DNA from: a virus
DNA: 64,000 nt
Virus record (IMG/VR): IMGVR_UViG_3300025892_002699
Direction: 5' to 3' (one strand)
Part shown: piece after piece, positions 18,047 through 62,349 of the stretch
Layout: the number at the start of each line of letters is the position of its first letter
Position numbering within the stretch: the first letter of the stretch is position 1
Notes under the pieces: model-generated
What the model was told of the DNA's origin: nothing
What the model saw: the letters and a program-made list of their open reading frames with translations, nothing else
Databases searched by the model: none
Made by a program: the position numbers and the translations under genes

Positions 18047-18052
18047 ACACTT

Positions 18053-19331: not shown

Positions 19332-19360
19332 TTGACAAATTGCAGTATATCACATATACT
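19332..19360 (+). promoter_or_regulatory. sigma70 promoter TTGACA-N17-TATACT, leaderless geometry
   Basis: The -10 box ends 6 nt before the ATG at 19367. Confidence 0.75.
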
Positions 19361-19366
19361 GTATGA

Positions 19367-27817: not shown

Positions 27818-28134
27818 TGGCTGAACAACTGAACGAAGACAAACTTGTACAAAAGAAAAAAATTAACATAGAACTTGATGTAGACACAAATGTGCATGAC
27901 AGTTCTAAAAACAAGTTTCAAGTATTAATTGACCTAGCAAGAGCAGTAGACAGTTGGAGAATATTTCCAAGAGTGTTTATTTCTACCTACATATTCCTAC
28001 TGTACAAAGTGGTAATATGGTACATGGATCTAGCGGCTCCCACAATGGAACAATCAGGTTTGGTAAGTATCGTTGTTGGTGCGGGTGCGGCATGGTTTGG
28101 TCTGTACACAGGTTCAAGAGCAAAATCCAAATAA
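27817..28134 (+). CDS. Two-TM membrane protein, holin candidate
   Basis: Start corrected to the ATG at 27817 (TAATG). WRIFPRVF... has two TM segments and a basic C-terminus, near the lysis genes. Confidence 0.55.
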   Translation: MAEQLNEDKLVQKKKINIELDVDTNVHDSSKNKFQVLIDLARAVDSWRIFPRVFISTYIFLLYKVVIWYMDLAAPTMEQSGLVSIVVGAGAAWFGLYTGSRAKSK

Positions 28135-28139
28135 TATCG

Positions 28140-28232
28140 TTGACTTTTAAACCAAAATCCTATACAATATAGTTGTGACTTTAAAAATTTAATATTAAAT
28201 ACTATTGACATTTAAAAAAGAATTACTATATT
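28140..28232 (+). promoter_or_regulatory. Tandem sigma70 promoters (TTGACT-N17-TACAAT at 28140-28168; TTGACA-N16-TATATT at 28205-28232)
   Basis: The second -10 box ends 6 nt before the dnaJ ATG. Confidence 0.7.
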
Positions 28233-28238
28233 AAACAC

Positions 28239-29087
28239 ATGGATTATTATAAAACACTAGGCGTCAACAGAAACGCATCCGAAACAGAAATCAAACAGGC
28301 ATACAAAAAGCAAGCCATGAAACATCATCCAGACAAAGGTGGAAATGGCACAGAGTTTCAAAAAATTAATGAAGCATATGACACACTTAAAAATCCTCAA
28401 AAGAAAACACACTATGATAGATTTGGTACTAGTCCAGGAATGAATCAAGGCGGTAATCGTTCATATGAATTCAGATCAGATGATTTTCCACAAGACATAG
28501 GAGATGTGTTTAATCAATTTTTCGGTGGAGGAGGCAGTCCATTTAGAAGACCACAAGCACAAAGAAAAAATAGAGACATCATCATAGAAGCACAAATAGA
28601 ACTTGAAGATGTTTTAAAAGGAAAAGAATTAGTGGCTTCTTACAGATTAACTAATGGTCGTGAACAAAGTGTAAATTTAACTTTGCCTAAAGGTATTGAA
28701 AACAACAGCACAATTAAATTTCCTTCACTAGGAGATGATTTACAAAAAAGTCTACCTAGAGGAGATTTACTTGTTAGAATTAAAATTAGACCACATGCCA
28801 AATGGGCAAGAGATGGTATCAACTTGCATTGTATTGAAAGAGTCAATGTGTTTGATTTAATGCTAGGCACAAAACAAACTATTAAGACATTAGAAGGAAG
28901 AAACTTGGCAATATCAGTTCCTAAAGGCACACAACCAGGCACTGTGTTAAGTGTAAGTGAACAAGGATTACCCACTAGAGGTGGACGCAGAGGCAATATA
29001 TATTTGACAATACAAGCAGACATACCATCTGTCAGCAAACAAGAATGGGTAGAAACATTAACTAGGATTCGAAATGAAATTAATTAA
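28239..29087 (+). CDS. dnaJ: DnaJ-class chaperone (type II, CbpA-like, no Zn finger)
   Basis: J-domain with HPD (KHHPDKGG), a G/F-rich linker and the C-terminal GDLLVRI domain. Confidence 0.92.
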   Translation: MDYYKTLGVNRNASETEIKQAYKKQAMKHHPDKGGNGTEFQKINEAYDTLKNPQKKTHYDRFGTSPGMNQGGNRSYEFRSDDFPQDIGDVFNQFFGGGGSPFRRPQAQRKNRDIIIEAQIELEDVLKGKELVASYRLTNGREQSVNLTLPKGIENNSTIKFPSLGDDLQKSLPRGDLLVRIKIRPHAKWARDGINLHCIERVNVFDLMLGTKQTIKTLEGRNLAISVPKGTQPGTVLSVSEQGLPTRGGRRGNIYLTIQADIPSVSKQEWVETLTRIRNEIN

Positions 29088-29565
29088 AGCACCAGACGAT
29101 TTTTTAGAAAAGAAAGTTAACGATTTTGATTTTAATCAAATGGATGCTGAGAAAATATCTTCAGAAATGTTTGATATAATGAAAAAATATGAAGGTGTTG
29201 GACTTGCCGCAAACCAAGTAGGCATAGACGCACAAATCTTTATCATGGGAGAAGATAAACCCATGACCATTATCAATCCTTTGGTAACAGAAGTCAGCAC
29301 AAATCAAGTGGAAATGATGGAAGGTTGTTTAAGTTTTCCTGGATTGTTTATGAAAGTAAAAAGACCAGACACAGTGGCAGTGAAATACCTTGACACACAA
29401 CAAAAAGAATGTATAATAAAGTTAGAAGGTTTTCATGCAAGAGTATTTCTTCATGAATACGACCATCTTCAAGGCATTACCTTTGATCAAAGAGTTTCAA
29501 AAATGCGTTTGGATATGGCAAGAAAGAAACAAGAAAAAATATTAAAAGGATTTATAAATGGTTGA
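29074..29565 (+). CDS. def: Peptide deformylase
   Basis: GVGLAANQVG, EGCLS and HEYDH motifs. Confidence 0.95.
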   Translation: MKLIKAPDDFLEKKVNDFDFNQMDAEKISSEMFDIMKKYEGVGLAANQVGIDAQIFIMGEDKPMTIINPLVTEVSTNQVEMMEGCLSFPGLFMKVKRPDTVAVKYLDTQQKECIIKLEGFHARVFLHEYDHLQGITFDQRVSKMRLDMARKKQEKILKGFING

Positions 29566-31807
29566 ACCTAGCAGTGCTTTACAAAGTGTTTTTGATAGAG
29601 CAGTAAAATTATCTAAATCTTATACGCATGAATATGTAACACTTGAACATATGTTGTATTCTATGTGTGAAGATGAAAAATTTTGTAATATCTTAAAAGG
29701 ATATGGCACAGATGTGGATAATTTAAAGAATCATTTAATAACGTATTTGGATAATAAATTAGATGGGATTAAATTAAAAGTTACCAAATTTAAACCTAAA
29801 AAAACTATCAGTGTTGAAAGAGTTCTCAACAGAGCATTTACACAAGTTTTATTCAGTGGTAGAACAAACATAGACTTAACAGATGTATTTTTAAGTTTAA
29901 TGAGTGAATCAAAAAGTTGGGCATACTATTATCTAGTTGAAGCAAAAGTTGATAAAGATAAGTTTATGGATTATCTACACAGCGAAATTGAAGAAATATA
30001 TGAAGATGAAGTTGATCAAAGTGAAACTAAAAGAGCACTTAACAAATACACATCAAACTTAAATGCCGAAGTTAAGAAGAAAAAAATTGATCCTGTAATA
30101 GGAAGAATTGATGAGTTAAATCAGATAGCATTAACCATTGGACGTAGAATGAAGAACAATGTTATACTTGTAGGTGATCCAGGTGTTGGTAAAACTGCGA
30201 TAGCAGAAGGATTAGCATTCAATATTGTGAATGAAACTTGTCCGGAATTTTTAAAAGGATATGAAGTGTACAATCTAGACATAGGTGCAATGTTGGCTGG
30301 ATCTAAATATCGAGGAGATTTTGAAGAAAGATTCAAAATGGTATTGAACGGATTGAAGAAAAAAGGCAAAGCAATATGTTTTATAGATGAAGCACACAAT
30401 ATTTCAGGTGCAGGTGCAGGTGGTGGCGGAAACACTGCTAATGACTTGGCTAACCTTTTAAAACCAGTTTTAACAAAAGGAGAACTTAAAGTGGTTGCTT
30501 CTACAACTTGGGAAGAATACAGAAAGTACTTCGAAAAAGACAGAGCATTAATGAGACGTTTTGCTAGAATAACTGTGGACGAGCCTGACAAAACAACTTC
30601 ATTAGAAATATTACAAGGACTTAAAAAGTATTACGAAGAATATCATAATGCAACAATAACAGATGATGCAATTTCTTCTGCTGTAAAATTAAGTGTAAAG
30701 TATCAAACAGATAAAAAACTGCCAGATAAAGCAATAGATTTAATCGACCTTGCTTGTTCACGTTTTAATTTGATAGAGAAACAATCAGATAGGATTGTTA
30801 ACGATGAAGCAATTCAATACGAACTGTCCAAGTTGGTGAAAATGCCTGTAGAAAATATTGCAGAAAAAGAATCCAGTAACCTTGCTAATTTGTCTAAAAA
30901 TATGAAAGCCAATGTGTATGGACAAGATGACGCAATAGACATGGTTGTAGACAAAGTGTTAGTTGCTCAAGCAGGACTTAAACGTGACAACAAGCCTATT
31001 GGTTCATTTGTATTCATGGGTCCTACCGGCTGTGGTAAAACAGAAACTGCCAAACAACTGTCTGAACAACTGGGTGTAAAATTAATTAGATTTGATATGT
31101 CAGAATATCAAGAAAAACATGCAGTGGCAAAACTTATTGGTTCGCCTCCAGGATATGTAGGTTTTGAAGAGAACACAGGATTGTTGGTAACAAAATTACA
31201 AGAAAATCCAAACTGTGTGTTATTGTTGGATGAAATAGAAAAAGCCCATCCAGATGTATCGCAAATATTATTACAGATCATGGACGAAGGATCAATTCAA
31301 GGTAACAATGGTAAAACAGCAAGTGCTAAAAACATAGTGCTTGTTCTAACTACTAACCTTGGTGCTGAAGAAAATGAAAAAAATGTAATGGGATTCGGTG
31401 CAGTGAAAGATTCTACATATGATGATAAGGATATCAAACGTTATTTTGCTCCTGAATTTAGAAATAGACTAGATGGCACAGTTGTATTCAAGAAACTTGC
31501 TAAAGAAGTTTTGATCAAAATTGTTGGTAAGTTTATGCTAGAGTTGAAAACTCAATTGAAAGAAAAAGATGTGGCATTAGAACTTACAGATGAAGCCATA
31601 GATTATCTAGTAGAAAATGGGTATGATGATAAAATGGGTGCTAGACCTATGCAAAGATTAATAGATAATAAGATCAAAAAAGACCTTTCAAAAGAATTAC
31701 TGTTTGGATCGCTAAAAAATGGTGGTGTCGTTAAGGTCACAGTTAAAGATAAAAAATTGGCTTTGGACGTTGGCGATGGTGTCAAACTGCTTGAAAAACA
31801 AGCCTAA
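29558..31807 (+). CDS. clpA: ATP-dependent Clp protease ATPase subunit ClpA
   Basis: Clp N-domain; two AAA modules (GDPGVGKT, GPTGCGKT); KLPDKAIDLID; no ClpB middle domain. Confidence 0.92.
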   Translation: MVEPSSALQSVFDRAVKLSKSYTHEYVTLEHMLYSMCEDEKFCNILKGYGTDVDNLKNHLITYLDNKLDGIKLKVTKFKPKKTISVERVLNRAFTQVLFSGRTNIDLTDVFLSLMSESKSWAYYYLVEAKVDKDKFMDYLHSEIEEIYEDEVDQSETKRALNKYTSNLNAEVKKKKIDPVIGRIDELNQIALTIGRRMKNNVILVGDPGVGKTAIAEGLAFNIVNETCPEFLKGYEVYNLDIGAMLAGSKYRGDFEERFKMVLNGLKKKGKAICFIDEAHNISGAGAGGGGNTANDLANLLKPVLTKGELKVVASTTWEEYRKYFEKDRALMRRFARITVDEPDKTTSLEILQGLKKYYEEYHNATITDDAISSAVKLSVKYQTDKKLPDKAIDLIDLACSRFNLIEKQSDRIVNDEAIQYELSKLVKMPVENIAEKESSNLANLSKNMKANVYGQDDAIDMVVDKVLVAQAGLKRDNKPIGSFVFMGPTGCGKTETAKQLSEQLGVKLIRFDMSEYQEKHAVAKLIGSPPGYVGFEENTGLLVTKLQENPNCVLLLDEIEKAHPDVSQILLQIMDEGSIQGNNGKTASAKNIVLVLTTNLGAEENEKNVMGFGAVKDSTYDDKDIKRYFAPEFRNRLDGTVVFKKLAKEVLIKIVGKFMLELKTQLKEKDVALELTDEAIDYLVENGYDDKMGARPMQRLIDNKIKKDLSKELLFGSLKNGGVVKVTVKDKKLALDVGDGVKLLEKQA

Positions 31808-31828
31808 TCATTCAAACCGCCCAATAGG

Positions 31829-31835
31829 CTAAATA
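31829..31835 (+). promoter_or_regulatory. Late-type promoter variant CTAAATA
   Basis: 7 nt before the ATG at 31843. Confidence 0.45.
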
Positions 31836-31842
31836 TACACAT

Positions 31843-32196
31843 ATGCCAGCAACAAGCGAAATAATATTGTCAGCAACAACACATCCGGGAGATAGTACGG
31901 TTGAAACAGTTGTGAGTGAAAAATTCAAAGGTGACGGTTATTATGGTAGATCAGATGGATTTCACACTGTGCAAATCAATGTAAATGGAGTTGCAGGAAC
32001 AGTTCAAATACAAGGTACATTAGCAACCACACCAGCAACTGCTGATTGGTTCAATATAGACGGTGCTTTGTACGACAGTCAAACTGCTGGTAAAGACGGT
32101 GCCTTTGTGTATAATTTTACAGGAAATTTTGTTTGGATAAGAGCAAGTATTTCTTATACCGACGGAACAATTAACAACATATTATTAAATCATTAA
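31843..32196 (+). CDS. Hypothetical beta-rich virion-type protein
   Basis: VQIQGTLATTP...WF and GNFVWIRA segments. Confidence 0.7.
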   Translation: MPATSEIILSATTHPGDSTVETVVSEKFKGDGYYGRSDGFHTVQINVNGVAGTVQIQGTLATTPATADWFNIDGALYDSQTAGKDGAFVYNFTGNFVWIRASISYTDGTINNILLNH

Positions 32197-32199
32197 ACT

Positions 32200-32787
32200 A
32201 TGCATCATTATATTAACATTATTAAAGATACACCTTTTACAGAAGACGAAATTAATACAGCAATCAATTTAAGCACAATTGGTTTATTGGAAGACGAAAC
32301 AAAATATATCACATACGAAAACACTGAAGGACAACATGTGTTAACTGTTGAACTACATAGACAATTAGATGTAGTAGAATCTGATGATTTTGTGGAAGAT
32401 TTAGAATTAGTTTACAATAAACAAGGACTAAAAGATTACGTGGTTGAAGTGAGTGACAATGATCCTATGGAAGAAACATACAATGGTGATGATTTTTTTG
32501 AAGCATACGGAGACATGTGGTTTGATGAAGATGAGTCATTAGACGAAGCAGAATATCAAGGACGTAAAGTTAAACTTGGTAAACCAATGCAAGGTGATGT
32601 AAAAAAATTTAAAGTGTATGTTCGTGATCCAAAAACTAAAAATGTTAAAAAAGTTAATTTTGGTGATCCAAACATGAGAATTAAAAAATCAAATCCTGCA
32701 AGACGTAGAAGTTTTAGAGCAAGACATAATTGTGCTAATCCTGGTCCAAGAACAAAAGCAAGATATTGGAGTTGTAGAAAATGGTAA
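32200..32787 (+). CDS. Hypothetical protein: acidic N-domain plus basic Cys-containing C-module after LDEAE
   Basis: Sharp switch from acidic to basic at SLDEAEYQG. Confidence 0.75.
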   Translation: MHHYINIIKDTPFTEDEINTAINLSTIGLLEDETKYITYENTEGQHVLTVELHRQLDVVESDDFVEDLELVYNKQGLKDYVVEVSDNDPMEETYNGDDFFEAYGDMWFDEDESLDEAEYQGRKVKLGKPMQGDVKKFKVYVRDPKTKNVKKVNFGDPNMRIKKSNPARRRSFRARHNCANPGPRTKARYWSCRKW

Positions 32788-33086
32788 GACTGAACGAATT
32801 CAATCAAATAGAACAAGAACCTAAATTAGATTATGATCTAATGGATGACATGTATTTCTATGCAATAAATGATGACGATTTTTATAGAAAAAATTACTAC
32901 CCTGTAATGAACAAGTGTAAGCAAACTGGTGACAACGAAGGTGTTATGCCTTTAATTGATTCTTTAATTAATGCATATTGCACCAAGTACAAAATTCCAA
33001 AACAATTAGCAGATCAAATAACTACTCAAGACAAAACTTTGTTGATGCAAAGAATGATGGACGCCGAAAAAGAAAATGAGGAATAA
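32781..33086 (+). CDS. Probable internal head protein
   Basis: N-terminus MVRLNEF resembles a capsid-targeting sequence. Confidence 0.6.
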   Translation: MVRLNEFNQIEQEPKLDYDLMDDMYFYAINDDDFYRKNYYPVMNKCKQTGDNEGVMPLIDSLINAYCTKYKIPKQLADQITTQDKTLLMQRMMDAEKENEE

Positions 33087-33088
33087 TC

Positions 33089-33664
33089 ATGTTGATCACG
33101 GAGATAGTAGAAGCACCAAATAAGACTGCGGCGTTTGCCTTTGGCAGAATGAATCCACCAACAGCAGGACACAAAAAAATTGGAGAAGTGATCAAAGCAC
33201 AACCAGGTGATCCTTTTATCTTTATCACTCACACTCAAAACGCAAAAACTGATCCTTTATCATTTGCACAAAAATTAACCTTTGCTCAAAAAATGTTTCC
33301 CATGATTAAAGTAGGAGACACAGCAGTGCGAACATGGGTACAAGCCATGCAGAAATTAGAACAAATGGGATATACAGATATCATCTATGTGGCAGGTTCT
33401 GACAGGGTAAATCAATTCAATGAATTGCTGAACAAATACAATGGCAAAGAATACAATTTCAATTCAATAAAAGTGGTGAGTGCAGGTGAAAGAGATCCGG
33501 ATGCACAAGGTCTAGAAGGCATGAGTGCTTCTAAAATGCGTGATTTAGCCGCTCGTGGAGACAAAAAAACTTTTATAAATGCTGTTCCTATTGACCCTAA
33601 AACAGCAGAAGAGATGTATAATCAAGTGAGAACAGGACTCAAACTAAATCCTGTAACTGTATAA
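33089..33664 (+). CDS. Cytidylyltransferase-like (HxGH) nucleotidyltransferase with CTS-like N-terminus
   Basis: FGRMNPPTAGH, VAGSDR and MSASKMR motifs; starts MLITEIVEA. Confidence 0.82.
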   Translation: MLITEIVEAPNKTAAFAFGRMNPPTAGHKKIGEVIKAQPGDPFIFITHTQNAKTDPLSFAQKLTFAQKMFPMIKVGDTAVRTWVQAMQKLEQMGYTDIIYVAGSDRVNQFNELLNKYNGKEYNFNSIKVVSAGERDPDAQGLEGMSASKMRDLAARGDKKTFINAVPIDPKTAEEMYNQVRTGLKLNPVTV

Positions 33665-33676
33665 AACAATATAAAT

Positions 33677-33886
33677 ATGAATATAAGTGATTTAAAACGT
33701 TTAGCAGGCATTGGCACAGACAACAATGAACCGTCTATGGGCGAAAACATTAGTCAAACTGCTACTGCTTTAAAACAAAAAGAAAGAAAACTAGGCTTAA
33801 AGCCAGGTGATCAAGATTGGTTTAAATTATGGTTCTCAAAACCATACATGACTGGCCCTGTAAAGTTTAGAGGTAGAAAGAAATGA
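33677..33886 (+). CDS. Probable internal head protein
   Basis: MNISDLKRLAGI N-terminus. Confidence 0.65.
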   Translation: MNISDLKRLAGIGTDNNEPSMGENISQTATALKQKERKLGLKPGDQDWFKLWFSKPYMTGPVKFRGRKK

Positions 33887-35868
33887 AATTAAGAGATTTA
33901 TTTGTAGTAGAATTTAAAATAGCAAATCAACCTGATCCAAAAGACAGAGATGATTACAAAGCCAAAATGGCTTCATTACAAGACATTCAAAAAGATCCTA
34001 AAATGGCTGATGCTAGAACGCAGGCGGTGATAGCCAAAAGGAAAGAAGAATTACGTAGATGGGCTGAGAAAAATTTAAGAACAGAAGACAATGTTCAAGA
34101 AAGAATGCCAGCATCAGTTATCAAAAGCAAACAAAGATATGCAGATATGACTGACCAAGAACTTGCAGATAGATTTAAAGATTCAGATGAAAAAACTTTA
34201 AGACAGATGGCTTGGAGACACGGCTATGGCAATATGAGTTCACACTATTTTGATAGAGTTCAAAAAGGCAAATCTCAAACAGAAGATGGTGTACAGCCTA
34301 CAGATATGAAAAGAATGGGTGCAGAAACTAAAACATTGTACGTTCACAAAGATGGTAAAACAATTATGATTCCAGCAGAACGTGAAAAAGATTTTATTCA
34401 AAAAGGATTCAAAAGATCAGCATTGAGAACAGAAGAAACTAACGAAGGCGAAATGCGTTTAGACAAATCAGCATTTGTTCAAATGTTAGCAGACAAAATT
34501 AAAGAACCTCAAAAAGGACATGGAAGACCAGAGTACGACAACAGACTGTTGGCAAAGATGTACAAATTGATTACAGGTAAAGATGTAGATTTTGAAGGCA
34601 ACAAGTTTACTATCACAATGAATAAACCAACAACTGAAGGAACTTATCTGGATGAAGGTTGGTTAGACACTTTAAAAGCGGCAGGCAGAAAAATTGTTCC
34701 GGATCAAGTCAGAGCATTGTATGATCCAGCAACAGCGGCAAAAGTTCAAGCAGATGATCAAGCAAAAGTTCAAATGGATACTTTATTCAAAGACATTAAC
34801 ACCGTGGCAGGTTTAAATCAAACCGATGTGTCTCAAGGATATCCTGCAGATTTAGTTGTAGCATATTTGAGAAAGTATGTTGCGCCTAAACATCCTGATG
34901 CATTTAAAAGAATGGATGCTCAAGGAGATTTAAAAAAAATGTTTCCAGCAGGACAAAAAATAAGTTCAGGTACGTTAAAAGGAAATTTAAATAAAGTTGC
35001 TGTCGAACTTGGTAAAGTAAATTTAAGTCCAGATCAAGGACAACAACCTACACAACAACCTACACAACAACCTCAATTAGTTCCGGCTTCTATGGACAAT
35101 GAAGAAACAGTTTCAGAAGAGGCACCGTTTGGATCAGGCATGGATCTTGTGAGAATGGCTGTGATGAGAAAATTTATATCAGCAGAAGAATATACGGCTT
35201 ACGCAAAAGAATTAAAAGCGGCGGGAGAGGAAGTAGAACAAGAATATGATGATTGGCCAGATGGAGAAGGATTTGGTTCATCAGATGGAAACTTTGCTAT
35301 TAAAGATTTAATGGGAAAAGCAGGCTACGAGTTTGACGAGCAGGATAAAGGCGGTAGGTTCATAGTCACAAAGATGCCTGAGAAATTAGAAAAGATGGGC
35401 ATTAAAAATGTAAGAATGAAAGATGCAGTTGCAACTGAAGATTCAGTTAAAGAAGGTGCATCAATGATTCCTTATTTTAAAACTGAAAAAGATTTTGATG
35501 GAGAGAAAACTACTGTGTATGAATTTCCAATGGCTTGGGCAAAAGATAAAGAGTTGGATACTCCTTACTTGAGTAACGCCAGCATGAGACAATTTTTAAT
35601 GGATCTTGGTTACGGTGGCGACTTTGAGAATATGAGTGCTGTGCCTGTGGAAGAATTTATTGCTGTAACAACACAATGGTTGCAAAAGAATATAGATAAA
35701 AAATCGCCAGAAGAACCAACCACAATAGATAAAAATCCAGATGGGCCAACCATGATATCAGGTGGTAAACCAGAAGGTTACATGAATAGGCAAGTGAAAC
35801 TCCACAACGAACTTGCTAGAAAAATTAAACAAAAATATCCAGAAGTCACGCATTTAGGTTTCAATTAA
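33883..35868 (+). CDS. Modular internal-head polyprotein candidate (661 aa)
   Basis: MKLRDLFVVEF start and repeated xTE(D/E/G) linkers separating unrelated blocks. Confidence 0.65.
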   Translation: MKLRDLFVVEFKIANQPDPKDRDDYKAKMASLQDIQKDPKMADARTQAVIAKRKEELRRWAEKNLRTEDNVQERMPASVIKSKQRYADMTDQELADRFKDSDEKTLRQMAWRHGYGNMSSHYFDRVQKGKSQTEDGVQPTDMKRMGAETKTLYVHKDGKTIMIPAEREKDFIQKGFKRSALRTEETNEGEMRLDKSAFVQMLADKIKEPQKGHGRPEYDNRLLAKMYKLITGKDVDFEGNKFTITMNKPTTEGTYLDEGWLDTLKAAGRKIVPDQVRALYDPATAAKVQADDQAKVQMDTLFKDINTVAGLNQTDVSQGYPADLVVAYLRKYVAPKHPDAFKRMDAQGDLKKMFPAGQKISSGTLKGNLNKVAVELGKVNLSPDQGQQPTQQPTQQPQLVPASMDNEETVSEEAPFGSGMDLVRMAVMRKFISAEEYTAYAKELKAAGEEVEQEYDDWPDGEGFGSSDGNFAIKDLMGKAGYEFDEQDKGGRFIVTKMPEKLEKMGIKNVRMKDAVATEDSVKEGASMIPYFKTEKDFDGEKTTVYEFPMAWAKDKELDTPYLSNASMRQFLMDLGYGGDFENMSAVPVEEFIAVTTQWLQKNIDKKSPEEPTTIDKNPDGPTMISGGKPEGYMNRQVKLHNELARKIKQKYPEVTHLGFN

Positions 35869-36593
35869 TGCGTATTTTGGAACTAAATTCCAATATTGAC
35901 AAATACAACAAAAAGTTGTATAATGAAGATATGGAAACGAAACCAATTGTGTATCTAGACATGGACGGAGTTATGGCAGACTTCTTTGGTGGTATCGAAA
36001 AACTGTACGGTGTTGCACACTGGAAAGAACTTACATCAGATAGAACCAAAGACTTGAAAGCAGAAGTGATTGAAAAAATTACTGGCACAAACTTTTTTGA
36101 AACTTTACCTAAATTTACAAGTGCAGATCAATTGATTAAAATGGTTAAAGAATTCACAGGTGGAACTTTTTCAATTTGTTCTTCACCATTAAGAGGCGAC
36201 AATGCCAATTCAGCAAAATGGAAAAAAGTATGGATCAACAAAAACATTGAACAGCCTCAAGAAACAATTATTACTGGTAGAAAAGAATCTTATGCTGTAA
36301 ACAAGCAAACCAAACAGCCCAACATATTGATAGATGACAGACCAATCAATATTCAAAAATGGAACAGTGCTGGTGGATTTGGAATACTGTATCAAGCCAA
36401 CAGAGATTCATTAAGCAAGATCAAAACAGAATTAGAAGCATACACACAGCAACATCAAACAAAACAGGAAGGTGTTGGAATTATCACCAAACAAAACACA
36501 ACCGCAGATGTTAAGCCTGGCGAAACACAACGTCAAGCGGCAAAGTTTGGATTCAAAATAGATAAAAAAGGTAATCCACCTAGATTAAGATGA
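35868..36593 (+). CDS. 5'(3')-deoxyribonucleotidase-like HAD hydrolase with CTS-like extension; internal start at 35931
   Basis: YLDMDGVMADF and LIDD motifs; N-terminal MRILEL. Confidence 0.82.
   Translation: MRILELNSNIDKYNKKLYNEDMETKPIVYLDMDGVMADFFGGIEKLYGVAHWKELTSDRTKDLKAEVIEKITGTNFFETLPKFTSADQLIKMVKEFTGGTFSICSSPLRGDNANSAKWKKVWINKNIEQPQETIITGRKESYAVNKQTKQPNILIDDRPINIQKWNSAGGFGILYQANRDSLSKIKTELEAYTQQHQTKQEGVGIITKQNTTADVKPGETQRQAAKFGFKIDKKGNPPRLR
35896..35924 (+). promoter_or_regulatory. Perfect sigma70 promoter TTGACA-N17-TATAAT embedded in the CDS
   Basis: The -10 box ends 6 nt before the in-frame ATG at 35931. Confidence 0.8.
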
Positions 36594-37585
36594 AACTGAG
36601 AGACATCATTGGCGAATTCATAATCATGCCTCAAACCATCAAGCCTCAAGGTTTGATTCATAAAAAAGGCACAGGCCCAAACAACAGGTTTGATTTCAAG
36701 AACAAGGGTAACAACAGAGCCAACGAAAACAAAATAAAACTGTCAACAGACCCAAAATATTTTGGTGCAATCGGCGTGGAAAAATACAAAGCCACAGGCC
36801 CACAAGTCAACATTCCTATTAAACAATTGGTTGGGTTCGAACCCGAAGACAAGATGAGAGACCCTAAGAGCATGGCCAAAGTGGATCAAATAGCAAAGGC
36901 TGTACAAAGTAAAAAACCCATGGGACCTATACTTGCAAGAAAATACAAGAACGGTTACCAGGTCATCGATGGACACCATCGTTTCTGGGGACATAGGAAA
37001 GCAGGTGCCGATTCCATAAAGGCACAAATTGTTCCACCTCAAGACATAGAAGAAGAGGCTGAATTCCTAGAAAACATTGATCCAAAAGTGTGGACTGAAC
37101 TACGGGCAAAAGGACTCGTGAGGCCAATGCACTTTGATAGTCCCGAGGTCAGAGCGGCATACAAAGAAAAAGGACTACCTTACAAACCCGACATCAGTAT
37201 TATCACCAAAGATAACTTGGATCAGTTTAGAACAAAAGAGCCGGAGAGATTAAAACAATTGAAACCAATCCAAGTAAGTGATCAGCAGTGGATTAATTAC
37301 ATGGATAAGTGGTGGAGGACTGAAAGGTTGAAACCTAAGGCAAAAGATAAAGTGCAACAGATAAAAAATGCCTATAAACTTTTATATAAAAAAGATATGG
37401 TGGAGAACTTCGCAGACGGTAAGAAAAAGGGCAAAAGCAGACCAGGCAGAGTAAAGAAGTCAGGTGCCAGTTGCAATGGTAGTGTAACATCATTGCGTAA
37501 GAAGGCTAAAAACGCATCCGGAGAGAAGGCTAAGATGTATCATTGGTGTGCTAACATGAAGTCTGGCAGAGCAAAATCTAAATAA
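36590..37585 (+). CDS. ParB/Srx-domain protein with CTS-like N-terminus and basic C-module
   Basis: YQVIDGHHR motif; MKLRDIIGEF start; MVENFADGKK...HWCANMK module. Confidence 0.75.
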   Translation: MKLRDIIGEFIIMPQTIKPQGLIHKKGTGPNNRFDFKNKGNNRANENKIKLSTDPKYFGAIGVEKYKATGPQVNIPIKQLVGFEPEDKMRDPKSMAKVDQIAKAVQSKKPMGPILARKYKNGYQVIDGHHRFWGHRKAGADSIKAQIVPPQDIEEEAEFLENIDPKVWTELRAKGLVRPMHFDSPEVRAAYKEKGLPYKPDISIITKDNLDQFRTKEPERLKQLKPIQVSDQQWINYMDKWWRTERLKPKAKDKVQQIKNAYKLLYKKDMVENFADGKKKGKSRPGRVKKSGASCNGSVTSLRKKAKNASGEKAKMYHWCANMKSGRAKSK

Positions 37586-37588
37586 ATA
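37582..37588 (+). promoter_or_regulatory. Late-type promoter ATAAATA
   Basis: Overlaps the stop codon; GAGGA SD downstream. Confidence 0.5.
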
Positions 37589-37612
37589 AACACAAACAAA
37601 GAGGAATAAACA

Positions 37613-37855
37613 ATGGCTGAATTTATAGAAAGATTAATTGAAGCACGTGACTCAAAAACAGGTTGGGTACAAGAAACTGCTTCTTCAATGCTATCATTAA
37701 AACGTAGATTTGAAAATGGTGATATTACAGAAGCAAAATACATCGCAGGCTTAGATGCATTAAAATCTGGTGATAATGAAGTTGGATCAGGTGGTAGTTA
37801 TAATGAACGAGCAATCGTTGATAATGGTATTATCTGTCTAAAAGAATTAATTTAA
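37613..37855 (+). CDS. Hypothetical protein
   Basis: SD present; starts MAEFIERLIEAR. Confidence 0.7.
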   Translation: MAEFIERLIEARDSKTGWVQETASSMLSLKRRFENGDITEAKYIAGLDALKSGDNEVGSGGSYNERAIVDNGIICLKELI

Positions 37856-37859
37856 TATT

Positions 37860-37952
37860 ATGTGGAAAAAAGCAAAGAAAAAATTAAAAACGTGGTACAC
37901 TTGTTCTAAAGTAAGTTTACTTGTAGACAAAATTAAGAAAAAATTCAAGTAG
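37860..37952 (+). CDS. 30-aa Lys-rich peptide, not in the ORF track
   Basis: MWKKAKKKLKTWYTCSKVSLLVDKIKKKFK; fills the gap between neighbours exactly. Confidence 0.5.
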   Translation: MWKKAKKKLKTWYTCSKVSLLVDKIKKKFK

Positions 37953-37953
37953 T

Positions 37954-38136
37954 ATGCGTTATAAGGACATCAAAATGGTGGAGGCTCGTGTGGACTATCA
38001 TTATGGATTGGATCCTGAAATGCTGGTATACACTCACAAGGTGGGCGACATATACGGTAAAAAGAACCTCAAAGTGCCACACGCCAAATACACCACATCT
38101 AAACGTGTTAAAAATTTACACAAAGACGGTAAATAA
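37954..38136 (+). CDS. Probable internal head protein
   Basis: MRYKDIKMVEAR N-terminus. Confidence 0.65.
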   Translation: MRYKDIKMVEARVDYHYGLDPEMLVYTHKVGDIYGKKNLKVPHAKYTTSKRVKNLHKDGK

Positions 38137-38140
38137 TATT

Positions 38141-38371
38141 ATGCGTATCAGAGACATTATATCAGAAGTTGCAACAGCAGGTGCTACATCGGCTGGCAGT
38201 ATTGCAACAGTGGCTAATCCACAAATAGCAATAGGTGATAAAAAAGCACGTGATGCCTATGGCAAAAAAGGTGCTTCTGCAAAACCACCTAAAGCAAAAA
38301 TGCAAAAACCAACTGACAATGCTTTAGATATGAAAGGGACATCGATATTTGGTGCTCCAATAAAGAGATAA
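38141..38371 (+). CDS. Probable internal head protein
   Basis: Start corrected to 38141 (MRIRDIISEVA); GTAAATA at 38129-38135 lies 5 nt upstream. Confidence 0.7.
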   Translation: MRIRDIISEVATAGATSAGSIATVANPQIAIGDKKARDAYGKKGASAKPPKAKMQKPTDNALDMKGTSIFGAPIKR

Positions 38372-38379
38372 ATATTACT

Positions 38380-39057
38380 ATGAAACATTCAGATTTAACA
38401 AAAAAAGACGTTGCTAAAGAAGGTAAAATGCCACAAGCGGCTATTGACGCTCTAGCAAAGAAGAACGGCAAAAGCAACAAAAAAGATTCTAAAAAAGAAG
38501 TACAAACAGAAGACCTAGCACTGATGGCTCAGAAAGCAGAGATGGATCATGAAGTTCAAATGGCAAGATCAGATTTGTACAAAGCGGCAAAATATTCAAT
38601 CAAACTGCACGAACTGTTAAAAAATGTTTCTGAAGAACAAGGTTTAGAAGGTTGGGTAGCGGCTAAGATTACCAAAGCGGCAGATTATTTGAGTTCAGTA
38701 AAACATTACATGGAATATGAAATGATATCTGGACAAGAGACAGCAATGGCTGAACCAACTGAAGCAATAGCAGAAAATATTTGCAAAACGTGTGGTTGTG
38801 ATATTGAAATGCCTAAACCAGCATGTAAATGCACACATGATTACAAAGAATCATTAGCAAACAAATTACAGAATAAATTAAAAGAATCCGCAAAAACTTG
38901 TAAAGAGTGTAACAAACCAACATGGGAAACACTGGATGAAGCAGAAAAGCAAAAAGGTGTTGATGGTAAAGTGTGTTGGAAAGGCTACAAAAGAATGGGC
39001 ACCAAGATGAAGGGTGGCAAAAGAGTAGACAACTGCGTTCCAATTAAGAAAAAATAA
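38380..39057 (+). CDS. Modular protein with Glu linkers and small Cys modules
   Basis: VQTED, IAEN, LKES and LDEAE linkers; CxxC and CWKGY...NCV modules; ATAAATA at 38368-38374. Confidence 0.7.
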   Translation: MKHSDLTKKDVAKEGKMPQAAIDALAKKNGKSNKKDSKKEVQTEDLALMAQKAEMDHEVQMARSDLYKAAKYSIKLHELLKNVSEEQGLEGWVAAKITKAADYLSSVKHYMEYEMISGQETAMAEPTEAIAENICKTCGCDIEMPKPACKCTHDYKESLANKLQNKLKESAKTCKECNKPTWETLDEAEKQKGVDGKVCWKGYKRMGTKMKGGKRVDNCVPIKKK

Positions 39058-39108
39058 AAATCCAATAAATACACACAGTTATTATTTAAACCATGAGAGG
39101 ACTGTGTC

Positions 39109-39759
39109 TTGAACTTTGTTGCAAATATACCATACATCAAATGTTGGGTCAAAAAAGAATACGTACACGATTTCCAACGTGGGCATGGTGATTTCATAGA
39201 AGCAATTCTTATAGCAGTTAAATCAGTACAGGGTAGAGCATTAATGTTTGAAGCATACTTGCCAGAGTATGGAGCCTGTTACGACAAGTTTCCAATATCA
39301 GCATTTGTTTGGCGCACAGACATCAAAGAAGAAGAACAACTTCCACTTGGTACACTTGAACTTTGGGATTCATTCAGTTCCAATATACAAGTTTGGACCA
39401 AAGCCATGTTGAAAAATTGTGATGTCGAAATCATGTTGAAGGGTGGTGGCAGAATGAAAGGTGAATATTTGTTCACTGTTGATGCATGTCATGGAGATCC
39501 CAACACCGTCAATACCGGAGTTTCCGAAGTACCCTCAGAACACAAACAACACAATTTTGGTAGATTGGCAAATGGACAATACTTTGCACAACCAAATAAT
39601 AGAATGCTTTGGTTTGAACAATCACTCACGGCATCAGAATTAAAAATACCAGACTTTCAAGTCAGCACCAAAGAGTTTTTCTGTGAAAATGAAAGCACAG
39701 TTACTTTTGGTGATTCCGACGATTATTTCTACGAAGATAAATTAAGAGATTCCAAATAA
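39109..39759 (+). CDS. Hypothetical phage protein (TTG start)
   Basis: GAGG SD and ATAAATA at 39065-39071. Confidence 0.75.
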   Translation: MNFVANIPYIKCWVKKEYVHDFQRGHGDFIEAILIAVKSVQGRALMFEAYLPEYGACYDKFPISAFVWRTDIKEEEQLPLGTLELWDSFSSNIQVWTKAMLKNCDVEIMLKGGGRMKGEYLFTVDACHGDPNTVNTGVSEVPSEHKQHNFGRLANGQYFAQPNNRMLWFEQSLTASELKIPDFQVSTKEFFCENESTVTFGDSDDYFYEDKLRDSK

Positions 39760-39764
39760 GACAC

Positions 39765-39793
39765 TTGACTTCTTGAAAAAAATTAAGTATAAT
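39765..39793 (+). promoter_or_regulatory. sigma70 promoter TTGACT-N17-TATAAT
   Basis: Consensus match; the leader contains AGGAG. Confidence 0.8.
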
Positions 39794-39814
39794 AGCGAAT
39801 AAGAAGGAGAACAT

Positions 39815-40240
39815 ATGTCTTTAAAAGGAACAAAAACATCAGATAATCTGAGAGCCGCGTTTGCAGGCGAGAGTGAAGCAAACAGAAGATACCTTTATTT
39901 TGCTCAAAAGGCAGACATTGAAGGTGCACCAGATGTTGCATCAGTATTTAGAAGCACAGCAGAAGGTGAAACAGGACACGCACACGGACATCTAGAATAT
40001 TTAGAAGAAGTGGGAGATCCTGCAACAGGTGAACCAATGGGTGAAACTGAAGACAATCTTAAATCAGCAGTGAAAGGTGAAGTGCATGAGTACACTGATA
40101 TGTACCCAGGCATGGCAAGAACTGCTAGAGAAGAAGGTTTTGAAGAAATCGCAGATTGGTTTGAAACACTTGCAAAGGCTGAGAAGTCACACGCAGGTAA
40201 GTTTCAAAAAACACTAGACGCATATCTAGAAAGCAAATAA
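39815..40240 (+). CDS. rbr: Rubrerythrin-like ferritin-fold protein (no rubredoxin domain)
   Basis: AFAGESEANRRY, ETGHAHGH, EVHEYTDMYP and EKSH motifs. Confidence 0.9.
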   Translation: MSLKGTKTSDNLRAAFAGESEANRRYLYFAQKADIEGAPDVASVFRSTAEGETGHAHGHLEYLEEVGDPATGEPMGETEDNLKSAVKGEVHEYTDMYPGMARTAREEGFEEIADWFETLAKAEKSHAGKFQKTLDAYLESK

Positions 40241-40247
40241 TTATATC

Positions 40248-40268
40248 GGAGCGGCATCATGTCGCTCC
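40248..40268 (+). other. GC-rich stem-loop (9-bp stem) in the intergenic gap
   Basis: GGAGCGGCA-TCA-TGTCGCTCC, with no U-tract. Confidence 0.55.
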
Positions 40269-40292
40269 ATACAACCACACAAGGAGAACAAA

Positions 40293-40553
40293 ATGGCAGG
40301 CAGAACATACGGTCCAGAAGAACAAGCAAAACTTAAAAGAATTATAGATGAAGGAGCCAACGTTCTTTCAGAAGTTGAAGATTTAAGTGGCGGATTAAAA
40401 GACACTGTGAAAGCAGTTGCAGAAGAATTAGAAATCAAACCAGCACTTATAAACAAGGCAATTAAGATTGCTCACAAAGGTGAATGGCACAAATATTCAG
40501 ACGACTTTGATTCATTAGAAAACTTGATTATTGCAGTTGGTAAAGACCAATAG
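40293..40553 (+). CDS. Small dsDNA-binding protein (T4 DsbA/DUF2312-like)
   Basis: LKRIIDE...KDTVKAVAEELEIKPALINKAIKIAHK pattern. Confidence 0.6.
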   Translation: MAGRTYGPEEQAKLKRIIDEGANVLSEVEDLSGGLKDTVKAVAEELEIKPALINKAIKIAHKGEWHKYSDDFDSLENLIIAVGKDQ

Positions 40554-40566
40554 TCGTGTACAACTT

Positions 40567-40893
40567 ATGAAGTATATGGTTGACATTGACAACACAATTT
40601 GTTATAATGAAAACAGTAACTATGTAGACAGTAAGCCAGACCTTGTTCGCATAGCGAAACTTAACGCACTGTACGATAAAGGCAACGAAATACATTATTG
40701 GACAGCACGAGGTGGTAATTCAGGCAAAGACTGGACTGAACTTACACATCAACAGTTAAAGGATTGGAATGTAAAGCACACTTCAATCACAATGAAAAAA
40801 CCGGTGTACGATGTCTGGATAGATGACAGAGCCATAAATGCAACAGACTTTTTTGGCGGATATGAGTTGAGAACAACAGACGAAGGAATATGA
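40567..40893 (+). CDS. Small HAD phosphatase (capsule-biosynthesis-phosphatase-like)
   Basis: VDIDNTI, YWTARG, KP and WIDDRA motifs; start corrected to 40567. Confidence 0.8.
   Translation: MKYMVDIDNTICYNENSNYVDSKPDLVRIAKLNALYDKGNEIHYWTARGGNSGKDWTELTHQQLKDWNVKHTSITMKKPVYDVWIDDRAINATDFFGGYELRTTDEGI
40580..40608 (+). promoter_or_regulatory. sigma70 consensus TTGACA-N17-TATAAT with TGn extension, inside the HAD gene
   Basis: Exact consensus overlapping the DxD codons; would drive guaC. Confidence 0.5.
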
Positions 40894-41942
40894 GAATAGA
40901 TTATAACATACATTTAGATTACTCAGACGTACTATTACAACCTAAAAGATCAACATTAAATTCAAGACGTGATGTAGATATCATGCGTGAGTTTAAATTT
41001 AAAAACAGTGGCAAGACTCTTTCATATGTGCCGATCATGGCATCGAACATGGATGGTGTTGGCACATTTTCAATGGCAAGAGTGCTACAAGAATTTAAAA
41101 TGCTTACAGTAATTAGAAAGCATTACACTATAGATGATTGGAAAAACGCCGCAGGCACAGGATTAAAATTCAAATATGTTTCTGCCTGTGTTGGTACAGG
41201 AGCGATGTGGGACGAAAACGCACAGGACTATCAAACATTGAAACAAGTGATGTCTGCATTTCCTGACATTCCATGTATTACAGTTGATGTTGCCAATGCT
41301 TATCATGAATCATTTGTGGATTTTGTTACAAAAATTAGAGAGGAGTATCCGGAAAAAGTTATCATTGCAGGTAACGTTGTTACTCCTAACATGACAGAAG
41401 AATTAATTATTAAAGGTGCAGATATTGTCAAGGTAGGAATTGGACCTGGATCAGTTTGCACAACAAGAACGCAGACAGGAGTAGGTGTTCCACAATTTTC
41501 AGCGATCATGGAATGTTCAGATGCCGCAAATGGTGTGGGAGGACATATCATTGCAGACGGTGGATGCACTCAGCCAGGTGATGTTGCCAAAGCATTGAGT
41601 GGTGGTGCACATTTTGTCATGCTAGGTGGAATGTTAGCAGGACATGATGAATCAGAATTAGAGTTAAAAGATGGCAAGAGAGTGTTTTATGGTATGGCTT
41701 CACAGACAGCATTAAGCACACATGGACAAAGAAAAGACGGATACAGAGGCGTAGAAGGCAAAACAGTAACACTACAAGACAAAGGCTCAGTTAAAGAAAC
41801 TGTTGAACAAATACTAGGTGGAGTCAGAAGCACTTGCACTTACATTGGAGCAAGACGAATCAAAGACATGCCTAAAGCGGCACACTTTGTAAGAGTCAAC
41901 AATGTGATCAACAGAGTCTTTGATAGATTCGAAACAAAATAA
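40890..41942 (+). CDS. guaC: GMP reductase
   Basis: DVANAY, KVGIGPGSVCTTR, ADGGC, FYGMAS and EGK motifs; no CBS domains. Confidence 0.9.
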   Translation: MRIDYNIHLDYSDVLLQPKRSTLNSRRDVDIMREFKFKNSGKTLSYVPIMASNMDGVGTFSMARVLQEFKMLTVIRKHYTIDDWKNAAGTGLKFKYVSACVGTGAMWDENAQDYQTLKQVMSAFPDIPCITVDVANAYHESFVDFVTKIREEYPEKVIIAGNVVTPNMTEELIIKGADIVKVGIGPGSVCTTRTQTGVGVPQFSAIMECSDAANGVGGHIIADGGCTQPGDVAKALSGGAHFVMLGGMLAGHDESELELKDGKRVFYGMASQTALSTHGQRKDGYRGVEGKTVTLQDKGSVKETVEQILGGVRSTCTYIGARRIKDMPKAAHFVRVNNVINRVFDRFETK

Positions 41943-41944
41943 TT

Positions 41945-42184
41945 ATGGAAAAAGTAAACACAGGCAACAACCTAAAATGGTTAGCAACAGCAATTTTAAT
42001 TATAGGCACATTCGTAAATGCGGGATTTCCTGAACTATATCCTGCAGGTCCACTGCTTCTGGCAATGGGCGGAATAGTTTGGTTAATAGTATCCATTCTT
42101 TGGAAAGAACCGGCACTGATTGTAACAAATTTAGTATTGACAGCAATGGGTTTCGGAGGTATACTATTATATTATATAAAGTAA
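41945..42184 (+). CDS. Small three-TM membrane protein
   Basis: Hydrophobic; LKWLATAILIIG start. Confidence 0.7.
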   Translation: MEKVNTGNNLKWLATAILIIGTFVNAGFPELYPAGPLLLAMGGIVWLIVSILWKEPALIVTNLVLTAMGFGGILLYYIK

Positions 42185-42190
42185 GGCAAT

Positions 42191-42243
42191 ATCAGCCACA
42201 ATTGATTTTAGGTATTTTGTCAGCCACAAATGACAAAAAGGAG
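42191..42243 (+). promoter_or_regulatory. Tandem hairpins with GCCACAAW loops abutting the polB SD (candidate translational operator)
   Basis: ATCA-GCCACAAT-TGAT at 42191-42206, TTTTGTCA-GCCACAAA-TGACAAAA at 42215-42238, then AGGAG at 42239-42243. Confidence 0.65.
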
Positions 42244-42248
42244 AACAA

Positions 42249-50086: not shown

Positions 50087-50604
50087 ACACAGCAAAAAGA
50101 AAACAGGTAATATACTTCACAGGCACAGAGATTGAAAACACAATAGCAAAAGGCTGGCAAACATTGTTTGTGGTTGGTACACGTCCAGTAGATGAAATTG
50201 CAAAATTGGCAACACAACATAATGCAAAACACATTTACTTTGGAACAAGTCAAAGTTTTGTGATTAATACCCCAGAAGATTTGAAACCATGGCACGAAAT
50301 GATCCAGTCATTGTTAGACAAAGATTTTTGGGTTACACTTGATTTTGGTATAGAATATATGGAAACTGTTACAAGCACAGGTTTAATGAGTTATAAAAAG
50401 TTTATTCCAATGATAAGTGCCAAAATTCCCAACATCTACAAAGTAAATGGTAATGCTACTCTTAAAATAGATGATGTGACGTGGGGACATTCAAACACAG
50501 GTGTTTGGAGCAGGAATCTTAATGAAATTACAAAAGATATGCACTATACAGATTGGAAAGAATATGTGGGGGACACAGTAATTGACGTTGACACAGACGA
50601 ATAA
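50077..50604 (+). CDS. Hypothetical protein in the modification cluster
   Basis: Overlapping ORF; no motif recognised. Confidence 0.75.
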   Translation: MALDTAKRKQVIYFTGTEIENTIAKGWQTLFVVGTRPVDEIAKLATQHNAKHIYFGTSQSFVINTPEDLKPWHEMIQSLLDKDFWVTLDFGIEYMETVTSTGLMSYKKFIPMISAKIPNIYKVNGNATLKIDDVTWGHSNTGVWSRNLNEITKDMHYTDWKEYVGDTVIDVDTDE

Positions 50605-50616
50605 AATTGCTATAAT
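50588..50616 (+). promoter_or_regulatory. sigma70 promoter TTGACA-N17-TATAAT, leaderless geometry
   Basis: The -35 box lies inside the upstream CDS; the -10 box ends 5 nt before the ATG at 50622. Confidence 0.75.
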
Positions 50617-50621
50617 TAATT

Positions 50622-51005
50622 ATGAATAAAAAAACATTTATATGGGTAACATTTAAAAAAGAAGGCATTCATAAATATCCTGCGGCATTGGATGATCCAA
50701 AGTTAGCAACAGGTGATGAATATGATGTATCATTTTTAGGATATCCTCACAGACATATATTTCATTTTAAAGTAGAAATAGAAGTATTTCACGATGATCG
50801 AGACATCGAATTTATTCAATTCAAAAGATGGTTAGAAAAACTGTATGCAGAAAAAACTTTACAGTTAGATTATAAATCTTGCGAAATGATAAGTGATGAT
50901 CTATATGAAACAATTACTAAAAGATATCCAGGTAGAGAGATTATCATCAACGTTAGCGAAGATGGTGAGAATGGTAGTGAGACCATCTACCATGTTGAGG
51001 ACTAG
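50622..51005 (+). CDS. QueD-like T-fold protein (LxxxHRHxF motif; QueD or DpdL-type)
   Basis: FLGYPHRHIFHF and SCEMI motifs. Confidence 0.7.
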   Translation: MNKKTFIWVTFKKEGIHKYPAALDDPKLATGDEYDVSFLGYPHRHIFHFKVEIEVFHDDRDIEFIQFKRWLEKLYAEKTLQLDYKSCEMISDDLYETITKRYPGREIIINVSEDGENGSETIYHVED

Positions 51006-62343: not shown

Positions 62344-62349
62344 AGTATT

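Follow-up and report, generated by a model that had tools for sequence, protein, structure and literature searches.

A conserved sigma70-type promoter sequence within a nucleotidase gene of an uncultured marine giant phage, and the leaderless protein it may produce

Here we analyze a nucleotidase gene present on a 64,000-nt stretch of viral DNA, IMG/VR record IMGVR_UViG_3300025892_002699 (the window; all coordinates refer to it and to one strand), and in particular a 29-bp element embedded in the coding sequence of this gene. The element is probably a working promoter recognized by the sigma70 factor of the host, which would give rise to a short, leaderless nucleotidase besides the long form encoded by the complete reading frame. 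A first-pass annotation had described the element as TTGACA-N17-TATAAT followed, after 6 nt, by an in-frame ATG inside the nucleotidase open reading frame (ORF), and this description is exact. The annotation's proposals that the ORF contains a sigma70-type promoter, and that Met22, located just before the HAD domain, serves as a leaderless start, are supported by the comparison of relatives presented below. It should be noted that we infer from the sequence where transcription starts, that both forms are translated, when they are made and what the N-terminal tag does.

Results

The stop codon TAA of the upstream ORF (35866-35868) and the ATG of the long form (35868-35870) form a TAATG overlap. 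Translation of the nucleotidase ORF gives MRILELNSNIDKYNKKLYNEDM, followed by ETKPIVYLDMDGV, and codons 10-19 (IDKYNKKLYN) encode the stretch from the -35 to the -10 hexamer. The promoter sequence matches the consensus at 12 of 12 bases and its spacer (35902-35918) has a size of 17 nt. TATAAT is followed by the six bases GAAGAT and then by the ATG of Met22 (35931-35933), 63 nt (21 codons) past 35868. This ATG thus begins at the seventh base after TATAAT, which is the expected +1 position. Neither a Shine-Dalgarno sequence of the GGAG/GAGG type ahead of Met22 nor an extended -10 motif (TGn) was found at this promoter. The gene and the element have the following features:

35868..36593, + strand: NT5C/HAD nucleotidase, long reading frame, 241 amino acids (aa); PF06941, phrog_2643
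35868..35930, + strand: N-terminal extension of 21 codons (MRILEL...NED) that carries the promoter; tag-like motif
35896..35901, + strand: -35 hexamer TTGACA; TTG in 91/91 relatives
35905..35919, + strand: ACAAC-N5-GTTGT, an inverted repeat located in the spacer (arms of 7 bp in the window); may act as an operator or form a weak hairpin
35919..35924, + strand: -10 hexamer TATAAT (Tyr18 TAT and Asn19 AAT); present in 87/91 relatives
35931..36593, + strand: short leaderless isoform (predicted), from Met22 onward, 220 aa; transcription is predicted to begin at A35931
35958..35972, + strand: HAD motif I, DMDGV (residues 31-35, with Asp31 and Asp33); invariant in alignment A1
36471..36590, + strand: tail at the C-terminus (GVGIITKQN..., residues 202-241); found again as a module in other cassette proteins of relatives

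Sequences resembling TTGACA-N17-TATAAT with at most one mismatch occur 12 times in the window, all of them on the + strand, whereas 1.36 are expected from shuffled sequences and none of 100 shuffles reached 12. Strong promoter matches are therefore enriched about 9-fold, on the coding strand only. Matches at 9 of the 12 positions, on the other hand, are no commoner than chance (60 versus 54 expected in shuffles).

We collected 160 related loci from viral and metagenome collections, among which 91 distinct sequences carry the element (58-95% aa identity over the gene). The spacer is 17 nt long in all 91, and the invariant TTG is part of TTGACG in 64, of TTGACA in 13 and of TTGC.. in 12 of them. 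All 91 have an in-frame Met, whose ATG is located 6 nt from the -10 hexamer in 83 cases, 9 nt in two and 15 nt in six; in the latter six, the sequence AGGTGAT, which resembles a ribosome-binding (Shine-Dalgarno) site, is found just before the ATG. Locus L017 is the sole close relative without the promoter, and it also lacks the internal Met.

Synonymous-codon entropy was computed for the 112 aa columns that are conserved at 90% or more in these same 91 sequences. The five columns with the lowest entropy correspond to codons 14 and 16-19, and the probability that the five lowest columns fall within one 6-codon run is about 5e-6. The codon usage at these columns is:

Asn14: AAC, 88/88
Lys16: AAG, 83/83
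Leu17: TTG, 91/91
Tyr18: TAT, 90/91
Asn19: AAT, 88/88

In comparison, four to six codons are in use at all other conserved Leu columns, and conserved Lys columns elsewhere mostly favour AAA, while Lys16 is invariably AAG. Relatedness does not explain this freezing of silent sites, because the columns are compared within the same sequences and on the same tree. The conservation is not explained by protein structure either, because residues 1-24 are predicted to be disordered and to lack a fold: an AlphaFold2 (AF2) model, which is of moderate quality and based on a shallow alignment, gives a predicted local distance difference test (pLDDT) score below 50 and no secondary structure for these residues, and the fold starts near residue 27. 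The codon comparison thus indicates that the hexamer bases are under purifying selection apart from the encoded protein.

The comparison of relatives also bears on the longer frame. In 69 of the 92 relatives placed in a tree, the nucleotidase forms part of an in-frame fusion of 386-395 aa with an adenylyltransferase-like domain, and in a fused relative that was checked both domains exceed the respective Pfam cut-offs. Since these fusions have the promoter and the Met in the interdomain linker, the region of the element is certainly translated in them; the shorter product of an internal start would be the nucleotidase domain alone. Since most relatives are fusions with the element in the linker, a long and a short form are both to be expected. 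None of the relatives of the window type (about 12) has lost the ATG of the TAATG overlap. In codons 3 and 6 of their extension the first and third positions vary whereas the second is invariably T, so that the residues remain aliphatic; codon 5, which changes at its third position only, remains acidic, and the single length change is an in-frame insertion of 12 nt (L009). The extension in the window, too, looks translated.

A short distance between promoter and start codon is not unique to this gene. The + strand of the window contains 15 promoter matches of at least 11/12, and for five of these the ATG of a long ORF is located exactly 6 nt past the -10 hexamer (starts at 18053, 19367, 28239, 35931 and 62350; binomial P ~2e-5); at 50622 the distance is 5 nt. 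The start at 28239 is secure, because the J-domain begins at residue 2 of the encoded protein. As six bases separate TATAAT from the ATG, the usual +1 would be the A of the ATG. Apart from the element itself, these promoters are:

18018-18055, 19332-19369, 28205-28241, 50588-50624 and 62315-62352, + strand: early-type promoters with an ATG 5-6 nt behind the -10 hexamer and no ribosome-binding site; predicted to produce leaderless mRNAs

Among close relatives, the ATG follows at exactly 6 nt in 14 of 21 other promoter-ATG pairs, although many of these represent one orthologous gene; at the loci of the distant relatives the distances are grouped around 23-37, and Shine-Dalgarno leaders are present. 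By its layout, the sequence at 35896-35933 would be a normal member of the leaderless-start class of this phage, but one that is nested in a longer frame.

Conservation extends beyond the hexamers: bases -26 to -5 (22 nt) are nearly invariant in the relatives. The inverted repeat in the spacer was not mentioned in the first-pass annotation. Two C:G pairs of this repeat sit on the invariant silent third positions of codons 13, 14, 16 and 17, and judging from these alignments the promoter alone does not account for these silent positions. The presence of the repeat in the promoter spacer suggests an operator for a dimeric regulator and, hence, a regulated promoter; alternatively, the repeat may form a weak RNA hairpin in the long transcript. 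The local RNA fold at the repeat has a z-score of -2.6, and of the hairpin predicted in the window only a 5-bp core (2 G:C) recurs in relatives, with inconsistent pairing of the AUG. Because the arms of the repeat never vary, covariation cannot show. We also considered, and rejected, a regulon of such sites: within the window, ACAAC-N5-GTTGT with at most one mismatch was found 8 times versus 4.3 expected, so that there is no enrichment, and the sole other perfect copy (55559) is located inside a gene, without a -10 hexamer. This second copy (55555-55578) lies in a gene for a GDSL-like hydrolase, has no TATAAT behind it, and codes for ENNTKLYV, which is near the ENNKKLYN of the fusion-type linker.

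The window also contains sequences resembling the late promoters of T4. The motif GATAAATA is present 11 times on the + strand, each time ahead of a gene start, and 0 times on the - strand. Given this position of GATAAATA and the enrichment of sigma70-type promoters, the phage appears to use host-type early and T4-type late promoters, like T4-like phages do. The view of the first-pass annotation that the long form is the "late" one is not borne out: between 27179 and 37581 there is no GATAAATA except for TATAAATA at 33670, which overlaps a start codon. Upstream transcription could instead come from the early-type promoters at 28205 or 29390. Copies of GATAAATA start at 227, 13370, 14075, 17193, 18570, 23107, 24835, 27179, 38367 and 60347, and several are only 5-10 nt before an ATG, so that some late transcripts may be leaderless or nearly so. 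Furthermore, in four distant relatives (L036, L045, L047 and L054) the nucleotidase homologue is preceded by an early-type promoter and then by CGATAAATACTA 4-6 nt before the ATG. The proteins of these four begin with MRxxEL or a close variant (MQAKDL in L047), and early and late promoters stand in tandem before one ATG.

Sequences of the region are present in four marine metatranscriptome runs of one study, whose assembled contigs (Logan) contain 93-97% of the sampled words of 34800-37000. In two of the runs contigs end or begin at 35905-35934, while in the other two contigs bridge 35868-35931. We rejected these breaks as RNA ends: the loose ends read fusion-type flanks, and the breaks are therefore attributed to a branch of the assembly graph at an invariant 30-mer shared with fusion-type relatives. 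The contigs give information neither on a transcript start nor on the expression level. The same four runs also contain co-occurring fusion-type relatives of the phage group (window 32500-39500).

The 241-aa ORF can be assigned to the NT5C/HAD-type nucleotidases, its activity and substrate being predicted. It matches PF06941 (NT5C) over residues 25-176 with 26.5 bits (cut-off 24.8) and phrog_2643 (5'-3' deoxyribonucleotidase) with an E-value of 9e-26, and the family profile matches the solved mitochondrial and cytosolic 5'(3')-deoxyribonucleotidases (mdN/cdN; e.g. human 4mum and 1mh9). The residues D31-M-D33-G-V are invariant in alignment A1, and an invariant K139 and D156-D157 also fit motifs III/IV. 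In view of the adenylyltransferase-like domain attached to the nucleotidase in relatives, the predicted substrate should be taken as putative. The nearest cultured homologue belongs to Methylophilales phage Melnitz (49% identity over residues 24-189). The HAD fold and the DxDGV motif are common to the NT5C family, the Melnitz homologue and the window protein. The Melnitz gene, however, is a stand-alone gene of 175 aa with an intergenic promoter and a leader, whereas the window protein has an added N-terminal extension and a C-terminal module of 40 aa. This C-terminal tail is missing from relatives of 197-214 aa, and its residues 202-239 recur in other proteins, as found by comparing the relatives' ORFs with the window proteins by BLASTP.

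The start of the long form, MRILEL, fits the pattern M-x-(ILVFM)-x-(DE)-(ILVF), which is present on five consecutive window genes (33089, 33677, 33883, 35868 and 36590, with MLITEI, MNISDL, MKLRDL, MRILEL and MKLRDI, respectively). In close-relative loci the motif occurs on 237 of 1014 unique ORFs (23%), as compared with 0.9% of internal Mets in these proteins and 2.7% in distant-relative loci; besides the window, the observation covers loci L002-L020 and L082-L161. It heads at least 10 unrelated protein families, and the fusion proteins bear it at their own N-terminus. The earlier reading of MRILEL as a tag-like peptide is thus upheld insofar as it belongs to a real, shared N-terminal motif.

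Discussion

The most plausible course of events at this locus would be as follows. Transcription from the element would start at or beside A35931, yielding an mRNA that begins with AUG, and the ribosome would translate this leaderless mRNA into the 220-aa nucleotidase, i.e. the HAD domain alone. Transcripts initiated upstream would carry the stop-coupled ATG at 35868 and yield the 241-aa form, whose 21 extra residues are probably unstructured and begin with the motif common to neighbouring proteins. In most relatives the fusion of adenylyltransferase and nucleotidase would be the long form, its linker containing this same promoter and Met. In this way the element would uncouple expression of the nucleotidase domain from its N-terminal attachment.

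Several points weigh against this explanation. The transcript start and the N-terminus of the short form are predictions, and the capacity of the host for leaderless translation is assumed. In the window, the long form is only 21 residues longer, and its translation is argued from the substitutions in about 12 sequences. Perfect promoters are also present inside genes at 29390 and 40580, and these are not followed by an ATG; embedded promoters therefore need not make isoforms. Finally, the conservation exceeds what sigma70 needs, and hence another DNA or RNA function would be superimposed on the promoter or could be the main one. As to the two embedded promoters themselves, the one at 29390-29417 lies in coding sequence 141 nt ahead of the gene for a Clp-type ATPase, and the one at 40580-40608 overlaps the codons for a DxDxT motif (VDIDNTICYN) in a small HAD-like ORF.

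It could be argued that the nucleotidase is an ordinary leaderless gene starting at 35931, that the upstream 63 nt are just a promoter region that is open in frame, and that there is no long isoform in the window lineage. The layout is like that of other leaderless modules, with the promoter straight after the upstream stop; moreover, 21 codons can remain open by chance, residues 1-24 are predicted to be disordered, and gene callers always choose the longest ORF. We nevertheless consider this explanation unlikely, though still worth bearing in mind. The ATG of the TAATG overlap is never lost from window-type relatives, codons 3, 5 and 6 behave like coding sequence and the 12-nt length change is in frame. 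The N-terminus M-(R/K)-(I/L/V)-x-(D/E)-(L/I) agrees with the shared motif, which has a frequency of 23% at ORF starts and of 0.9% at internal Mets, and as a fusion linker the region is surely coding in 69 of the 92 tree relatives.

Another explanation is that the 22-nt block (-26 to -5) is kept mainly as an operator, an RNA hairpin or a recombination joint for cassette shuffling, its likeness to a promoter being secondary. The conserved block takes in the 3' half of the spacer, which is not shared by the other promoters of the window, and the C:G pairs of the repeat occupy four invariant silent positions. In addition, the cassette is a mosaic with frequent module exchange, and near-consensus early promoters are recombination sites in T4-type phages (PMC2839356, PMC4122927). 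Yet the TTG of the -35 hexamer, at exactly 17 nt, is invariant although it lies outside the block. The ATG at 6 nt, the Shine-Dalgarno-like sequence that accompanies a displaced ATG, and the absence of both promoter and Met from L017 fit only a start of transcription and translation at this position. The hairpin is weak (5 bp, 2 G:C) and pairs inconsistently with the AUG, and the repeat pattern is not enriched (8 versus 4.3). An operator within the promoter would, moreover, be compatible with and additive to an internal promoter, and we judge it improbable that such a function is the principal one. A chance match in AT-rich coding sequence, or the outcome of amino acid selection plus codon bias, deserves next to no credence. 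The genome has 36% G+C and 9-of-12 matches occur about as often as expected (60 versus 54), but strong matches exceed the expectation 9-fold and are confined to the coding strand, the lowest variability among the 112 columns is that of the hexamer codons, and Lys16 is always AAG.

Nested, in-frame products are well known in phages, as exemplified by T4 gene 49 (endonuclease VII, two nested products), T4 gene 17, lambda C/Nu3 and T7 gene 4A/4B. T4 gene 49 uses a late promoter, whereas here a consensus host sigma70 site is written through six conserved codons. The cI mRNA transcribed from the PRM promoter of lambda is leaderless. Two in-frame Rep proteins are reported for plasmid pIGRK (PMC6854812). 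As in these nested phage and plasmid genes, one frame would produce a full-length and an N-terminally shortened protein, which in our case is predicted from comparative evidence; it differs in that the internal start has no Shine-Dalgarno sequence and that the promoter places the transcript start on the AUG. Leaderless transcripts are abundant in Deinococcus and mycobacteria (PMC4007540, PMC4633059). The -10 hexamer about 6-7 nt before the AUG and the lack of a ribosome-binding site are shared with known leaderless mRNAs; what differs is that here they form a recurrent early-type design of an uncultured marine T4-superfamily giant phage, and that the module is nested in a longer ORF.

The element also resembles the promoter-early stem-loop (PeSL) cassettes of T4-type phages, which likewise have a near-perfect TTGACA-N17-TATAAT in hyperplastic mosaic regions (PMC2839356, PMC4122927). 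PeSL cassettes are intergenic, with a stem-loop upstream and a Shine-Dalgarno sequence before the start codon (PMC4122927). The element, in contrast, is located inside an ORF and has neither a Shine-Dalgarno sequence nor an upstream terminator-like hairpin; a search for such hairpins on the + strand of 28000-44000 found none. We therefore do not classify it as a PeSL. Thus, nested products, leaderless mRNAs and near-perfect T4-type early promoters are each already known, and it is their combination that is new: a consensus promoter running through six codons, with the start codon on the transcript start, kept both in a linker and in an extension, and with an embedded palindrome. In the literature searched we found no report of a recurrent leaderless design in marine T4-like phages, and a search for reviews of internal-promoter isoforms gave nothing directly applicable.

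How the element came to lie within a longer frame is a further question. The first-pass annotation envisaged that an early gene was captured, promoter included, by fusion to a packaging tag. The capture of a self-contained gene together with its promoter is plausible: the more distant homologues, including that of Melnitz, are stand-alone genes, and several of them (Melnitz too) have an intergenic TTGACA-16/17-TATAAT with a Shine-Dalgarno leader at a similar distance to the DMDG motif. A packaging tag as the partner is not supported, since what is fused to the nucleotidase in most relatives is an entire adenylyltransferase-like domain. In a quick, unfinished tree the window-type sequences are basal and the fusions form one clade with 99% support. 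We draw no conclusion on whether fusion or extension came first, because the outgroup branch that carries the root is very long and the rows of L009 and L017 are themselves long and unstable.

If the element works as proposed, it provides a case of natural dual coding, in which six codons are selected both as protein and as promoter, tested over 91 natural variants. It also implies that gene callers report one product where two are likely, and that they miss leaderless starts in an abundant group of uncultured marine phages. The repeated use of promoter-N6-ATG points to a host that efficiently translates leaderless mRNA, and this is a clue to the host's identity. And if it is true that the N-terminal motif is a sorting signal, one gene would provide sorted and unsorted versions of an enzyme by means of the element.

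With respect to such a signal, the motif may be compared, by analogy rather than by sequence identity, with the capsid-targeting sequence (CTS) of T4 internal proteins (PMC3012670), which like it is a short conserved N-terminal peptide on diverse, shuffled proteins. Several tags of the window group hold (I/L/V)-x-E, and a gp21-type protease is encoded in a relative; I-x-E itself is present in MRILE and in some other tags. However, many tags, and many relatives at this position, have Asp where the T4 protease needs Glu, and the tagged set includes metabolic enzymes. Capsid targeting by the tag and an early/late switch are thus speculation. Alternatively, and this is our own suggestion, the tag may serve as the N-terminal signal by which the Clp-type ATPase of the neighbouring upstream gene (29558-31807) recognizes the tagged proteins. 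In its widest form, the idea would be that the internal promoter is one half of a tagged/untagged switch operating across the hypervariable cassette: the tag would route about 10 enzyme families to the capsid or to the Clp-type unfoldase for delivery with the DNA, while the palindrome-gated promoter would make a tag-free, cytoplasmic nucleotidase. We regard this wider scheme as doubtful.

Other features of the locus

The window has a G+C content of 36%, and every long ORF is on the + strand. We assign it to an uncultured marine giant phage of the T4 superfamily, because its DNA polymerase shares 44-49% identity with those of the giant phages Phosso, Atu_ph07 and 121Q, and because a related 196-kb contig, rated 55% complete, encodes a T4 gp21-type prohead protease (PF03420, E 4e-27). 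No match was found when cultured phage genomes were searched at the DNA level with 33800-37600. The genes flanking the nucleotidase gene include:

33089..33664, + strand: cytidylyltransferase/nicotinamide mononucleotide (NMN)-adenylyltransferase-like gene, 191 aa; PHROG cytidyltransferase E 5e-51, weak Pfam PF01467
33883..35868, + strand: 661-aa ORF, the "polyprotein" of the first-pass annotation; its TAA stop overlaps the long-form ATG
36590..37585, + strand: ParB-like gene, 331 aa, ATGA-coupled, starting MKLRDI; downstream of the nucleotidase gene

In the window the adenylyltransferase-like gene and the nucleotidase gene are separate, with a 69-aa gene and the 661-aa gene between them. A sequence search with the adenylyltransferase-like protein gave no relative with a solved structure, and no Pfam or PHROG match was found for the 661-aa ORF. 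The counterparts of this ORF in relatives form a mosaic of modules, with a varying number of modules and a size of 357-915 aa, and are sometimes split. The cassette as a whole (33883-39057) is a module mosaic, also in L002, L004, L006, L007, L008 and L013-L015. The 331-aa ParB-like protein is cut to 104 aa in some relatives, comprising its first 47 and last 60 residues, and in two loci, L006 (410 aa) and L007 (295 aa), parts resembling ParB are joined to the nucleotidase. The tagged cassette is immediately preceded, at 28239-31807, by the gene for the J-domain protein, an ORF of 163 aa and the gene for a two-ring Clp-type AAA+ ATPase of 749 aa. This ATPase (29558-31807) contains the domains Clp_N, AAA, AAA_2 and ClpB_D2-small.

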